Assembly (NCBI GenBank): GCA_965203275.1
Contig: OZ241865.1
Location: forward strand, 640,001-704,000
Length of the DNA stretch: 64,000 bases
Direction of reading: 5' to 3'
Origin: Bdellovibrionales bacterium
GTDB lineage: Bacteria; Bdellovibrionota; Bdellovibrionia; Bdellovibrionales; JAUICD01
This document shows positions 14,134 through 19,660 of this stretch, one piece after another; the stretch's first letter is position 1; each line of letters starts with the position of its first letter. The notes under the pieces are model-generated. The model was not told the origin of the DNA and made no database searches. It worked only from the letters and a program-made list of their open reading frames with translations. The position numbers and the translations under genes are program-made.

Positions 14134-14643
14134 TTACTCTGGTGGTTTTTGTTTAGTTAATTCATTAGATAAATGTTGATTCAATAAATTTAATATATCC
14201 CTATAGTTTTGATTATTTTCTTTTACCATGTCGTCAACTTTTTTCTCAAGCTTACTGATCTGTGTAGGTATATGATTGTATACTTGTTCTTGGATAGGCT
14301 TAATTGTAGCAACCAGTAGATCTCTTAAGTTATTTTCTGATTGGTTTACCAATTCCCTTAAGTTATTCTCTGATTGGTTTACCTGTTCCTTTAAGCTATT
14401 TACCAGTTCTTTTAAGTTATTTTCTGATTGGTTTACCAATTCCCTTAAGTTATTTTCTGATTTGTCTATCCGTTCATTTAATTTATTTTCTGATTTGTCT
14501 ATCCGTTCATTTAATCTATTTTCTGATTGAGTTGTCCTTTTCACCGCTCTATCATAAAGAAAAAAGCCCATAAAAGATATAGCCATGATTGTCGGTAGGT
14601 CTAAATATTCAACTATCTTTAAAATAAATTCATAGAAACCCAT
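14134..14643 (-). CDS. Array member 9: TM-anchored coiled-coil repeat protein, 169 aa
   Basis: AAGGAGG RBS; N-terminal TM; SENxL repeats; VYNHIPTQI motif. Confidence 0.9.
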   Translation of the reverse strand: MGFYEFILKIVEYLDLPTIMAISFMGFFLYDRAVKRTTQSENRLNERIDKSENKLNERIDKSENNLRELVNQSENNLKELVNSLKEQVNQSENNLRELVNQSENNLRDLLVATIKPIQEQVYNHIPTQISKLEKKVDDMVKENNQNYRDILNLLNQHLSNELTKQKPPE

Positions 14644-14771
14644 AATGTCCTCCTTCGTTATACCATCACCTTATCAATATAAAAAAGCATCCCACTAGCT
14701 ATATTGGTAAGCCTTTTTAGGTTTTCTGTATTTTCTTTAGCCATTTCTTCTCTTATAAAAGAGTTCATGGT

Positions 14772-15227
14772 TTACTCTGGTGGTTTTTGTTTAGTTAATT
14801 CATTAGATAAATGTTGATTCAATAAATTTAATATATCCCTATAGTTTTGATTATTTTCTTTTATCATGTTGTCAACTTTTTTCTCAAGCGTACTGATCTG
14901 TGTAGGTATATGATTGTATACTTGTTCTTGGATAGGCTTAATTGTAGCAGTCAGTAAATCCCTTAAGTTATTTTCTGATTGCTTTACTAATTCCCTTAAG
15001 TTATTTTCCAGTCGGTCTATCCGTTCATTTAAGTTATTCTCTGATTTGTTTACTAATTCCCTTAAGTTATTTTCTGATTTGTCTATCCGTTCATTTAATC
15101 TATTTTCTGATTGAGTTGTCCTTTTCACCGCTCTATCATAAAGAAAAAAGCCCATAAAAGATATAGCCATGATTGTTGGTAGGTCTAAATATTCAACTAT
15201 CTTTAAAATAAATTCATAGAAACCCAT
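14772..15227 (-). CDS. Array member 8, 151 aa
   Basis: Same cassette. Confidence 0.9.
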   Translation of the reverse strand: MGFYEFILKIVEYLDLPTIMAISFMGFFLYDRAVKRTTQSENRLNERIDKSENNLRELVNKSENNLNERIDRLENNLRELVKQSENNLRDLLTATIKPIQEQVYNHIPTQISTLEKKVDNMIKENNQNYRDILNLLNQHLSNELTKQKPPE

Positions 15228-15355
15228 AATGTCCTCCTTCGTTATACCATCACCTTATCAATATAAAAAAGCATCCCACTAGCTATATTGGTAAGCCTTT
15301 TTAGGTTTTCTGTATTTTCTTTAGCCATTTCTTCTCTTATAAAAGAGTCCATGGT

Positions 15356-15778
15356 TTACTCCGGTGGTTTCTGTTTAGTTAGTTCATTAGATAAATGTTG
15401 ATTCAATAAATTTAATATATTCTTATAGTTTTGATTATTTTCTTTTATCATGTCGTCAACTTTTTTCTCAAGCTTATTGATCTGTGTAGGTATATGATTG
15501 TATACTTGTTCTTGGATAGGCTTAATTGTAGCAGTCAGTAAATCTCTTAAGTTATTTTCTGATTGGCTTATCCGTTCATTTAAGTTATTCTCTGATTTGT
15601 TTACTAATTCCCTTAAGTTATTTTCTGATTTGTCTATCCGTTCATTTAATCTATTTTCTGATTGAGTTGTCCTTTTCACCGCTCTATCATAAAGAAAAAA
15701 TCCCATAAAAGATATAGCCATGATTGTCGGTAGGTCTAAATATTCAACTATCTTTAAAATAAATTCATAGAAACCCAT
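15356..15778 (-). CDS. Array member 7, 140 aa
   Basis: Same cassette. Confidence 0.9.
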   Translation of the reverse strand: MGFYEFILKIVEYLDLPTIMAISFMGFFLYDRAVKRTTQSENRLNERIDKSENNLRELVNKSENNLNERISQSENNLRDLLTATIKPIQEQVYNHIPTQINKLEKKVDDMIKENNQNYKNILNLLNQHLSNELTKQKPPE

Positions 15779-15907
15779 AATGTCCTCCTTCGTTATACCA
15801 TCACCTTATCAATATAAAAAAAGCATCCCACTAGCTATATTGGTAAGCCTTTTTAGGTTTTCTGTATTTTCTTTAGCCATTTCTTCTCTTATAAAAGAGT
15901 TCATGGT

Positions 15908-16351
15908 TTACTCCGGTGGTTTTTGTTTAGTTAGTTCATTAGATAAATGTTGATTCAATAAATTTAATATATCCCTATAGTTTTGATTATTTTCTTTTAC
16001 CATGTCGTCAACTTTTTTCTCAAGCTTACTGATCTGTGTAGGTATATGATTGTATACTTGTTCTTGGATAGGCTTAATTGTAGCAACCAGTAGATCTCTT
16101 AAGTTATTTTCTGATTGGTTTACTAATTCCCTTAAGTTATTTTCTGATTGGTTTACTAATTCCCTTAAGTTATTCTCTGATTGGTTTACCTGTTCCTTTA
16201 AGCTATTTACCAGTTCTTTTAAGTTATTTTCTGATTTGTCTATCCGTGTCATCGCTCTATCATAAAAAAACAAGCCAACACCAACTATACCTATAATTGT
16301 CCATACGTCTAAAGTTTCAAATGCCTTTAAAACAAATTCATAGAAACCCAT
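15908..16351 (-). CDS. Array member 6, 147 aa (alternative N-terminal TM allele)
   Basis: VLKAFETLDVWTIIGIVGVGLFFYDRAM N-terminus. Confidence 0.9.
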   Translation of the reverse strand: MGFYEFVLKAFETLDVWTIIGIVGVGLFFYDRAMTRIDKSENNLKELVNSLKEQVNQSENNLRELVNQSENNLRELVNQSENNLRDLLVATIKPIQEQVYNHIPTQISKLEKKVDDMVKENNQNYRDILNLLNQHLSNELTKQKPPE

Positions 16352-16480
16352 AATGTCCTCCTTTGTTATACCATCACCTTATCAATATAAAAAAAGCATC
16401 CAACTAGCTATATTGGCAAGCCTTTTTAGGTTTTCTGTATTTTCTTTAGCCATTTCTTCTCTTATAAAAGAGTTCATGGT

Positions 16481-17509: not shown

Positions 17510-17637
17510 AATGTCCTCCTTCGTTATACCATCACCTTATCAATATAAAAAAGCATCCCACTAGCTATATTGGTAAGCCTTTTTAGGTTTTCTGTATTTT
17601 CTTTAGCTATTTCTTCTCTTATAAAAGAGTCCATGGT

Positions 17638-18114
17638 TTACTCCGGTGGTTTTTGTTTAGTTAGTTCATTAGATAAATGTTGATTCAATAAATTTACTAT
17701 ATCCTTATAGTTTTGATTATTTTCTTTTATCATGTTGTCAACTTTTTTCTCAAGCGTACTGATCTGTGTAGGTATATGATTATATACTTGTTCTTGGATA
17801 GGCTTAATTGTAGCAGTCAGTAATTCCCTTAAGTTATTCTCTGATTTGTTTACTAATTCCCTTAAGTTATTCTCTGATTGGTTTACCTGTTCCTTTAAGC
17901 TATTTACCAGTTCTCTTAAGTTATTTTCTGATTGGTCTATCCGTTCATTTAATCTATTTTCTGATTTGTCTATCCGTTCATTTAATCTATTTTCTGATTG
18001 AGTTGTCCTTTTCACCGCTCTATCATAAAGAAAAAATCCCATAAAAGATATAGCCATGATTGTCGGTAGGTCTAAATATTCAACTATCTTTAAAATAAAT
18101 TCATAGAAACCCAT
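17638..18114 (-). CDS. Array member 3, 158 aa
   Basis: Same cassette. Confidence 0.9.
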   Translation of the reverse strand: MGFYEFILKIVEYLDLPTIMAISFMGFFLYDRAVKRTTQSENRLNERIDKSENRLNERIDQSENNLRELVNSLKEQVNQSENNLRELVNKSENNLRELLTATIKPIQEQVYNHIPTQISTLEKKVDNMIKENNQNYKDIVNLLNQHLSNELTKQKPPE

Positions 18115-18243
18115 AATGTCCTCCTTCGTTATACCATCACCTTATCAATATAAAAAAAGCATCCCACTAGCTATATTGGTAAGCCTTTTTAGGTTTTCTG
18201 TATTTTCTTTAGCCATTTCTTCTCTTATAAAAGAGTTCATGGT

Positions 18244-18819
18244 TTACTCCGGTGGTTTTTGTTTAGTTAGTTCATTAGATAAATGTTGATTCAATAAATT
18301 TAATATATCCCTATAGTTTTGATTATTTTCTTTTACCATGTCGTCAACTTTTTTCTCAAGCTTACTGATCTGTGTAGGTATATGATTGTATACTTGTTCT
18401 TGGATAGGCTTAATTGTAGCAACCAGTAGATCTCTTAAGTTATTTTCTGATTGGTTTACCTGTTCCTTTAAGCTATTTACCAGTTCTTTTAAGTTATTTT
18501 CTGATTGGTCTATCCGTTCATTTAATCTATTTTCTGATTGGTTTACCAATTCCCTTAAGTTATTCTCTGATTTGTCTATCCGTTCATTTAACTTATTTTC
18601 TGATTTGTCTATTCGTTCATTTAATCTATTTTCTGATTTGTCTATCCGTTCATTTAAGTTATTTTCTGATTTGTCTATCCGTTCATTTAATCTATTTTCT
18701 GATTGAGTTGTCCTTTTCACCGCTCTATCATAAAGAAAAAATCCCATAAAAGATATAGCCATGATTGTTGGTAGATCTAAATATTCAACTATTTTTAAAA
18801 TAAATTCATAGAAACCCAT
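18244..18819 (-). CDS. Array member 2, 191 aa
   Basis: Same cassette. Confidence 0.9.
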   Translation of the reverse strand: MGFYEFILKIVEYLDLPTIMAISFMGFFLYDRAVKRTTQSENRLNERIDKSENNLNERIDKSENRLNERIDKSENKLNERIDKSENNLRELVNQSENRLNERIDQSENNLKELVNSLKEQVNQSENNLRDLLVATIKPIQEQVYNHIPTQISKLEKKVDDMVKENNQNYRDILNLLNQHLSNELTKQKPPE

Positions 18820-18948
18820 AATGTCCTCCTTCGTTATACCATCACCTTATCAATATAAAAAAAGCATCCCACTAGCTATATTGGTAAGCCTTTTTAGGTT
18901 TTCTGTATTTTCTTTAGCCATTTCTTCTCTTATAAAAGAGTTCATGGT

Positions 18949-19491
18949 TTACTCCGGTGGTTTTTGTTTAGTTAGTTCATTAGATAAATGTTGATTCAAT
19001 AAATTTAATATATCCCTATAGTTTTGATTATTTTCTTTTACCATGTCGTCAACTTTTTTCTCAAGCTTACTGATCTGTGTAGGTATATGATTGTATACTT
19101 GTTCTTGGATAGGCTTAATTGTAGCAACCAGTAGATCTCTTAAGTTATTTTCTGATTGGTTTACCTGTTCCTTTAAGCTATTTACCAGTTCTTTTAAGTT
19201 ATTTTCTGATTGGTCTATCCGTTCATTTAATCTATTTTCTGATTGGTTTACCAATTCCCTTAAGTTATTCTCTGATTTGTCTATCCGTTCATTTAACTTA
19301 TTTTCTGATTTGTCTATTCGTTCATTTAATCTATTTTCTGATTTGTCTATCCGTTCATTTAATCTATTTTCTGATTGAGTTGTCCTTTTCACCGCTCTAT
19401 CATAAAGAAAAAATCCCATAAAAGATATAGCCATGATTGTTGGTAGGTCTAAATATTCAACTATCTTTAAAATAAATTCATAGAAACCCAT
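18949..19491 (-). CDS. Array member 1, 180 aa
   Basis: Same cassette. Confidence 0.9.
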   Translation of the reverse strand: MGFYEFILKIVEYLDLPTIMAISFMGFFLYDRAVKRTTQSENRLNERIDKSENRLNERIDKSENKLNERIDKSENNLRELVNQSENRLNERIDQSENNLKELVNSLKEQVNQSENNLRDLLVATIKPIQEQVYNHIPTQISKLEKKVDDMVKENNQNYRDILNLLNQHLSNELTKQKPPE

Positions 19492-19660
19492 AATGTCCTC
19501 CTTCGTTATACCATCACCTTATCAATATAAAAAAAGCATTAAAAAGTGCATAATCATAAAATATTATCTAAAGCCCGTCTAGCAAAAAACACCAGGAACA
19601 TACTATTTATGTATCGTCAGAGTTTAGTCTGACTTTAATCAAAATTGTATAGAGTTGGTT

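Follow-up and report, generated by a model that had tools for sequence, protein, structure and literature searches.

We analyzed a 64,000-nucleotide window of a Bdellovibrionales genome (positions 640,001 to 704,000 of contig OZ241865.1, assembly GCA_965203275.1; G000:C1:640001-704000), which lies within a single 2.57-Mb contig and carries a tandem array of nine intact open reading frames (ORFs) on the minus strand at 14134-19491 (Table 1). An initial annotation, made from the letters alone, had described nine head-to-tail genes of nine different lengths with 128/129-bp spacers and an AAGGAGG Shine-Dalgarno sequence (SD) of their own, and the ORFs bore this out in full. The SD of every gene reads AAGGAGG/AAAGGAGG, five bases upstream of ATG, and the eight spacers (128 or 129 bp) differ in length solely by a T6/T7 tract. 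In addition to the strong SD, the spacers carry TGGTATAAC, which by eye reads as an extended -10-like element; a sigma-70 scan called no sense promoter in the spacers, the TGGTATAAC site included, and placed an antisense site over each start codon, probably as a by-product of ATTATG. A terminator scan found none within the array. The leader of gene 1 is 84 to 89% alike upstream of 11 related genes at three other loci. Two N-terminal types are present, with genes 5 and 6 (type B) differing from the other seven (type A) at 20 to 24 of 96 bases. Short ORFs were also seen in the spacers examined (e.g., 18850-18945 and 17524-17634, minus strand); they begin 3 bases past the stop of the preceding gene, run from an ATG for 31 codons (T7) or 36 codons (T6), and contain no cysteine. 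The first 80 bp of the spacer are not seen elsewhere in the genome.

Table 1. Features of the window in and around the nine-gene array (window coordinates)
Feature	Position	Strand	Description
Paralogue, other subfamily	8208..8513	+	101 amino acids (aa), NHIPT motif directly behind transmembrane (TM) helix
Paralogue, tandem partner of 8208-8513	8785..9204	+	ORF of 139 aa
tRNA-Asp	13183..13259	+	array about 0.9 kb behind its 3' end
High-copy intergenic repeat cluster	13260..14120	.	flanks array; not part of family
Gene 9	14134..14643	-	169 aa, N-type A
Gene 8	14772..15227	-	151 aa, N-type A, without 7-aa module
Gene 7	15356..15778	-	140 aa, N-type A, without 7-aa module
Gene 6	15908..16351	-	147 aa, N-type B
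Gene 5	16481..16891	-	136 aa, N-type B; used for monomer and trimer models
Gene 4	17021..17509	-	162 aa, N-type A, without 7-aa module
Gene 3	17638..18114	-	158 aa, N-type A
Gene 2	18244..18819	-	191 aa, N-type A, modules 11x6+18
Spacer 1/2	18820..18948	-	129 bp; model for all eight spacers
Gene 1	18949..19491	-	180 aa, N-type A, modules 11x5+18
5' leader of gene 1	19492..19539	-	equals last 48 bp of spacers
Other seven spacers	18115-18243, 17510-17637, 16892-17020, 16352-16480, 15779-15907, 15228-15355, 14644-14771	-	
Second high-copy repeat cluster	about 19870-20450		

In transcription order, the proteins measure 180, 191, 158, 162, 136, 147, 140, 151, and 169 aa, and by computation all nine lengths fit 107 + 11a + 7b. 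With the 7-mer, a runs from 2 to 7 (136, 147, 158, 169, 180, and 191 aa); without it, a runs from 3 to 5 (140, 151, and 162 aa), each length occurring once and with no gap in either series. The modules behind these steps, of 11 residues (LNERIDKSENR, LRELVNQSENN) and of 7 residues (LKELVNS), are present as annotated and correspond to 33-bp and 21-bp DNA units that are always in register. Gene order does not follow length (Spearman rho = -0.47; P = 0.21), so the ladder appears only after sorting. The length ladder of the initial annotation therefore stands as a gap-free, duplicate-free set but not as a gradient along the DNA.

For 11 contig pieces, multi- or single-copy, in runs X1 and X2 (studies P1 and P2), we compared depth relative to a unique flank with the 31-mer copy number of the assembly; contig depth gives a rough estimate and not a copy number, the piece comparison used 32 listed pieces of 615, and one of the compared runs may be the source sample of the assembly. 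Depth ratios versus 31-mer copies were 6.25/5.55, 6.94/6.14, 1.99/1.8, 2.44/2.27, and 1.47/1.09 in X1 and 6.4/6.43, 5.23/5.74, 6.07/6.09, 2.23/2.14, 1.83/1.8, and 1.19/1.09 in X2, matching within about 15% in most cases. Ratios were lower in X6 (4.5 to 4.8 versus 6 to 7; study P3, flank depth only 3). A 450-bp contig of X8 (sponge metagenome, P4) bridges gene, spacer, and gene with four other letters and one gap relative to the array; the T tract is among its strain differences. In X7, a contig of 236 bp likewise bridges a gene-spacer-gene junction. The depth ratios in two studies and the junction-bridging contigs indicate that the array is real. The T tract varies in length in runs X7, X8, and X9. 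Array pieces occur in runs labeled sponge metagenome, and other samples encode other module combinations, for example, a 136-aa type A protein (P0005).

The array did not prove to be the self-contained system first described; its genes are 9 of 88 paralogues. The motif PIxEQVxNHIPTQI directly tags 76 small ORFs in the genome, a local hidden Markov model found 86 members at E < 0.01, and two more (E = 0.12 and 0.68) were added by hand. These 88 genes occupy 47 loci (31 singles, ten pairs, and arrays of 3, 4, 5, 7, 9, and 9 genes, making 16 arrays in all), and a few gene fragments are present. What had been annotated as a near-constant C terminus proved to be conserved in its internal NHIPTQI motif, the C terminus as a whole being swapped between subfamilies. 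The motif is retained across 25 N-terminal classes, and the repeats sit before it, as in the nine-gene array, or after it, member by member. All 86 proteins compared are mutually nonidentical, and the pairs of anchor-to-motif and motif-to-end lengths are nearly all unique (78 distinct among 80 members). In one 31-gene subfamily, the anchor-to-motif distances are 35, 42, 46, 53, 57, 60, 64, 68, 71, 75, 79, 82, 86, 90, 93, 104, and 115 residues. The two paralogues at 8208-8513 and 8785-9204 in the window carry ELKEDIK-type repeats behind the motif, and the second probably starts at ATG 8878, judged by its likeness to the first. The family also includes a 389-aa member (G000:C1 1059332-1060501, minus strand) with about 330 residues of repeats after the motif.

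Beyond this genome, we did not find the family in the congener G001 (92% complete) or in the other 29 relatives searched, taking weak matches within long ORFs (2 of 30 genomes in each of two relative searches) as noise, nor in any of 400 genomes of the phylum (12 candidates scored per genome). The arrangement recurs in an unrelated phylum; the Leptospiria genome G031 has 13 matches at E < 1e-4, including a nine-gene tandem array (154, 99, 121, 117, 110, 99, 128, 146, and 143 aa). A profile search returned 191 clusters (50% identity) at E <= 0.001, and among the 147 new clusters listed the TM segment lies before the motif in 105 (of which 8 come from this genome or are near-identical) and after it in 7. 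One match in Pseudalkalibacillus covers 23 residues. Elsewhere in G031 (L071), divergent pairs are formed by NHIPT genes and head-TM-coiled-coil genes, both ending in an LLKRK tail, and near these pairs are tandem repeats of 157-aa and 286- to 314-aa secreted-looking proteins.

The copies bear marks of both constraint and exchange. Of the 19 codons that vary in the constant parts, 10 are synonymous (P = 0.002 to 0.009), and the C-terminal part has a ratio of nonsynonymous to synonymous polymorphism (pN/pS) of 0.38; at the level of codons, these values show purifying selection on the array copies. In the same C-terminal part, 33 of 55 informative site pairs are incompatible, indicating that the copies recombine. 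By single linkage at 60%, four C classes are found with the N class of the array, and three N classes with its C class. Aligned to the gene at G000 1126456, the array loses DNA identity just past the motif; aligned to the gene at G000 1178783, it gains identity from the motif on. As read from these alignments, the N- and C-terminal halves are shown to have been swapped at NHIPTQI. The active diversification that had been proposed for the array agrees with the mosaic copies, the shuffled halves, and the other module combinations in other samples. The graded set of lengths was also more regular than simple neutral models would give, the probability of nine distinct lengths being 0.001 to 0.06 in a 16-state neutral simulation and 0.007 to 0.20 by resampling, in a post hoc test that depends on the assumed range.

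The AlphaFold2 monomer model of gene 5 consists of a helix at residues 3 to 13, a break, and a continuous helix at 16 to 132 (mean predicted local distance difference test score [pLDDT], 92.6), with the TM segment at about residues 17 to 31. Homotrimer modeling, as proposed in the initial annotation, gave a score of 0.72 for three copies of gene 5, compared to 0.00 for the best control; of solved one-chain pairs, 20 of 30 attain the mark used for this score, and of single chains, 1 of 23, figures that apply only roughly here. Across trimer runs, contact agreement was at least 92% and pLDDT was at least 83. In the modeled bundle, the chains run parallel and stay in register from the TM segment through residue 125, and the trimer contacts with the least error fall on I84-V103, that is, on the motif. 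The array proteins are thus predicted to form parallel homotrimeric stalks, in agreement with the membrane-anchored coiled-coil stalks first proposed; as all-helical rods, they would be 15 to 23 nm long (assuming about 0.148 nm per residue). Lysine plus arginine (K+R) content is higher on the C-terminal side of the TM segment in 62 of 86 members and lower in 15 (28 and 10, respectively, of 46 after removal of near-duplicates). This excess behind the TM segment suggests an N-out topology, so the stalk is probably cytoplasmic, and not surface exposed as the initial annotation had allowed.

The motif also occurs in short ORFs of phage-like contigs. At all 22 JGI loci found (about 13 distinct sequences, with one ORF cut by a contig end), it lies in a coiled coil of 60 to 125 aa with a hydrophobic segment at the C terminus, and in the phage-like form (loci L035-L057) it reads QVxNH[IL]P[TS]xI. 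Neighbors were scanned at six of these loci, and four show phage-type genes: an amidase, an SLT gene, a C1 peptidase-SH3 gene with a tail-fiber-like glycine-rich gene, and a portal gene. One motif-bearing contig is also in IMG/VR. Profile matches to phrog_1009, the top PHROG candidate, were found in 12 of 22 family members (best E = 8e-9, for short paralogues); gene 5 matched at E = 7e-4 and gene 1 gave nothing at 1e-3, compared to E = 4e-23 for a true member, WEU69642.1. The latter, annotated "putative holin" in Latilactobacillus phage OQ240258.1, sits before a holin and an amidase and lacks the NHIPT motif. Weaker matches linked 6 of the 22 members to phrog_739 and, among eight C-anchored relatives scanned, two to a PHROG "hemolysin." A tblastn search of annotated phages reached a best E of 0.09 with a short member and gave no match for a C-anchored relative. 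In one phage contig (L049:633-1464), the motif gene is split by another ORF, presumably HNH-endonuclease-like, compared to the intact genes of L046-L048.

No curated family fits the array proteins, upholding their uncharacterized status; matches in Pfam, NCBIfam, PHROGs, and PADLOC were scattered and of coiled-coil type. We rejected a few matches that passed curated cutoffs, MbeB_N (genes 1 and 2) and Sec20 and Mt_ATP-synt_B (gene 2), as composition matches on short repeat or TM stretches. A PDB profile search returned generic coiled coils (best E = 1e-5), a BFVD fold search gave no match, sequence-cluster look-ups gave no informative names, and the ESM Atlas offered, as leads only, unnamed phage and bacterial clusters at 0.89 to 0.91, with named families at 0.89 or below. 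The literature searched, which included motif strings and excluded subscription journals and supplements, gave no description of the family.

XhlA (PF10779) has its membrane anchor at the C terminus. Like the array proteins, it is small, with one TM helix and a coiled coil, and XhlA-like holin accessories sit in phage lysis cassettes beside holin and endolysin (PMC10630273). The array differs in its N-terminal anchor and in belonging to an 88-copy chromosomal expansion with repeat modules. PF10779 was not among the best 25 of 51 to 63 Pfam matches for three array proteins and gave no match at E <= 0.01 for eight C-anchored relatives. The array is not a lysis cassette, its neighbors being tRNA-Asp, repeats, and chromosomal genes with no adjoining endolysin; motif-sharing phage relatives partly occupy such a position. 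The proteins of phrog_1009 share the N-terminal TM segment followed by a coiled coil, at about 90 to 100 aa, and differ in that the true member is encoded by one gene within a lysis cassette. The Bdr proteins of Borrelia are multicopy paralogues with 7- and 11-residue repeats in varying number on a membrane anchor, which is C-terminal; their genes are plasmid borne, their repeat phrase probably resembles RIDKSENRLNE, and we know of no NHIPT motif in them. The array likewise varies the number of 7- and 11-aa repeats across paralogues, whereas its anchor is N-terminal, and no Bdr model was among the best 25 NCBIfam matches or the Pfam matches listed.

DUF1640/CCDC90 proteins form a membrane-bound trimeric coiled-coil stalk, resembling the trimer predicted for the array, with a beta-layer motif, [aliphatic]-A-T-K-x-[DE], at the stalk start (PMC4786415). 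This motif is absent from the nine sequences, the monomer model has no strand and its helix runs through NHIPTQI, and PF07798 reached only E = 0.5 to 0.7 for the two window paralogues. Two C-anchored coiled-coil ORFs elsewhere (G000:C1 232924-233526 and 1821112-1821546, minus strand), the first about 5 kb from large ORFs beside a CRISPR array, are what we take to be DUF1640/CCDC90-like proteins. The i-spanins have an N-in anchor and a periplasmic coiled coil. An Rz-like i-spanin pairs with an o-spanin lipoprotein (PMC9671378); we rejected this identity, the charge bias favoring a cytoplasmic stalk and the spacer ORFs having no cysteine. We conclude that the family works like the known repeat-variable membrane coiled-coil families yet fails membership in each one tested.

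A further association is with lone Cas12a-type CRISPR handles. Of 19 hand-listed lone handles, seven are no more than 150 bp from a family locus (P = 8e-7), and another four stand behind motif-less TM/coiled-coil genes. The first 11 nucleotides (nt) of the guide at G000 1546813 are complementary to the start-codon region of all nine array genes and three relatives, and none of 1,530 other gene starts reaches 9 nt with it; shuffled guides reach an 11-nt match with P = 0.06 to 0.15. Among 16 lone guides, five place a family start among their best 3 of 1,798 (array spacers, 0 of 6), four of the five being homologues. Guide pairing with the array start codons is a weak lead at most. Homologous guides with a CAT/TAT core (G000:C1 1546813 [+], 1916942, 1920946, 1744663, 1884192, 1915376, 264664, and 1412175) might pair with start codons in the context AUU AUG GGU UU, which is statistically weak. 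In G001, which does not carry the family, 60 handle matches all lie in one 4.5-kb stretch; in G031, 156 Cas12a-type handle matches lie on one strand from C1 318401 onward, those listed forming one long array.

The gene anatomy has good support; for the whole, we tentatively propose a diversifying family of phage origin whose trimeric inner-membrane stalks act in phage conflict, a function we infer. A plausible and likely source is domestication of the small XhlA-like accessory proteins encoded in phage lysis regions, after which the family may have diversified into a set of nontoxic membrane decoys or sensors. On this model, the motif at I84-V103 would register the trimer through its predicted contacts, slippage and unequal crossing-over in the module tract would create new lengths, and the partners would be phage membrane proteins bearing the same motif. 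Since anchor and motif must both line up in a parallel trimer, the distance between them could serve as an identity code, and copies of a new length would then be favored over redundant ones. In its boldest form, which we regard as a long shot, the genome would hold a length-coded decoy library against phage lysis, with distances tiled almost turn by turn, halves shuffled at the registering motif, part of the set tuned by dispersed CRISPR RNA (crRNA)-like RNAs, and each length capturing a different phage partner. If length is a recognition code, anti-phage specificity would gain a new principle; even otherwise, the 191 clusters make up an undescribed family and offer ready-made natural 7/11 coiled-coil rulers. 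To our knowledge, repeat-variable membrane-anchored coiled-coil paralogue families, with Bdr as the classic case, have resisted functional assignment. Here, function can be tested through the phage-shared motif, a natural stalk series in which anchor and tail stay the same and single modules make the difference, and the recombination hinge, with the physical link to lone CRISPR handles and the parallel array in another phylum as further handles.

Several results weigh against the phage-conflict reading. The trimer was modeled with three copies only, and a plain coiled coil may attain the mark by resembling solved ones. Outside relatives show a weaker charge bias (53 versus 30 of 105). When N-types A and B are compared, pN (0.24) does not fall below pS (0.18). 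Besides the post hoc nature of the length test, 4 of 148 within-array pairs share a length, including pairs in the G000 arrays at 1939k and 2208k, and the G031 array keeps the motif in only two of nine copies and has two copies of equal length. PADLOC gave no defense match beyond the scattered coiled-coil hits, and the nine-gene array has no lone handle, the nearest being about 290 kb away. The motif shared with phages is only about 10 residues long, and the group-to-group profile match is partly circular. The phage proteins are anchored at the opposite, C-terminal, end, so parallel co-assembly with them would tether both ends to the membrane.

The same sequences could instead encode a Bdr-like envelope scaffold, that is, abundant inner-membrane trimers with a housekeeping or membrane-stress role, for which total dose would matter and length variety would be a tolerated by-product of slippage. 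Purifying selection, a strong SD on every copy, modules that always keep register, and the Leptospiria array, in which seven of nine copies have lost the motif and the genes are retained, fit a scaffold. A housekeeping role sits less easily with our not finding the family in the congener or in three other same-family genomes searched, with the duplicate-free length series, and with the link to lone CRISPR handles, and we consider a scaffold possible but unlikely. We give less credence again to self-amplifying, nearly neutral cassettes carrying their own promoter and SD, from which selection purges only toxic or out-of-frame variants. Repeats are plentiful (6% of the genome in 16-mers of at least 50 copies, in 1,042 blocks), strains carry other module combinations, and there are a few gene fragments. 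Against near-neutrality stand the synonymous excess in very young copies, 86 distinct proteins of 86, and the motif kept across 25 N classes, and carriage by the high-copy intergenic repeats was rejected, since family loci are not enriched near them (18 of 47, compared to 545 of 1,525 other genes).

The handles raise the further idea of CRISPR-guarded, holin-like toxins that are silenced by lone-handle crRNA-like RNAs and released when Cas12 is inhibited. As with CreTA/CrePA CRISPR-repressed toxins (10.1101/2024.01.05.574328), a crRNA-like unit stands by a small, possibly phage-derived gene at seven other family loci. The adjacency of 7 of 19 handles, the four more behind motif-less genes, the 11-nt match to nine starts, and the five high-ranking guides speak for such an arrangement. 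The match is offset by the shuffling result, by a 13-nt perfect match of a guide in an unrelated gene, and by the homology of four of the five guides. At the guide target the flank is CUAUG, not the purine-rich protospacer-flanking site reported for Cas12a3 (PMC12851939). Guides match the promoter of their own neighbor no better than noncognate ones (9 informative pairs; the self-matching pair at 264664 was dropped), no promoter match with a protospacer-adjacent motif was found for the lone guides, and the nine-gene array has no crRNA-like unit, so that we judge guarded toxins improbable. We are equally doubtful of variable surface or host-directed stalks (N-in and C-out, or exported SNARE-like effectors) serving animal-host contact or cell recognition. 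The sponge-metagenome runs, the pattern of diversification, and the 15 of 86 members with more K+R on the N-terminal side suit them; the opposite bias in 62 members, a 15- to 23-nm all-helical rod without a head or binding domain, and the scattered coiled-coil nature of the Sec20 and other Pfam matches do not. That assembly multiplied one or two genes into nine has next to no credibility and is already largely refuted, since copy-specific single-nucleotide polymorphisms, the mosaic pattern, depth ratios in two studies, and junction-spanning contigs from other samples outweigh the lack of a contig piece spanning the full array.

Around the array, the high-copy intergenic repeats reach up to about 1,000 BLAST hits per position. 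In the congener G001, the genes that flank the array lie far apart, and behind an identical tRNA-Asp stands a 303-aa ORF with YTRYADD (L081:2164-3075, minus strand), which we take to be reverse-transcriptase-like and retron-like; this ORF suggests that tRNA-Asp is a site for defense cargo. The window further encodes a 785-aa protein whose Peptidase_M74 domain is C-terminal and whose long linker is acidic and His-rich (9323-11680, minus strand), a 618-aa protein with a Peptidase_M41 match (21728-23584, plus strand), and a type IV pilin-like gene (5356-5994, minus strand).

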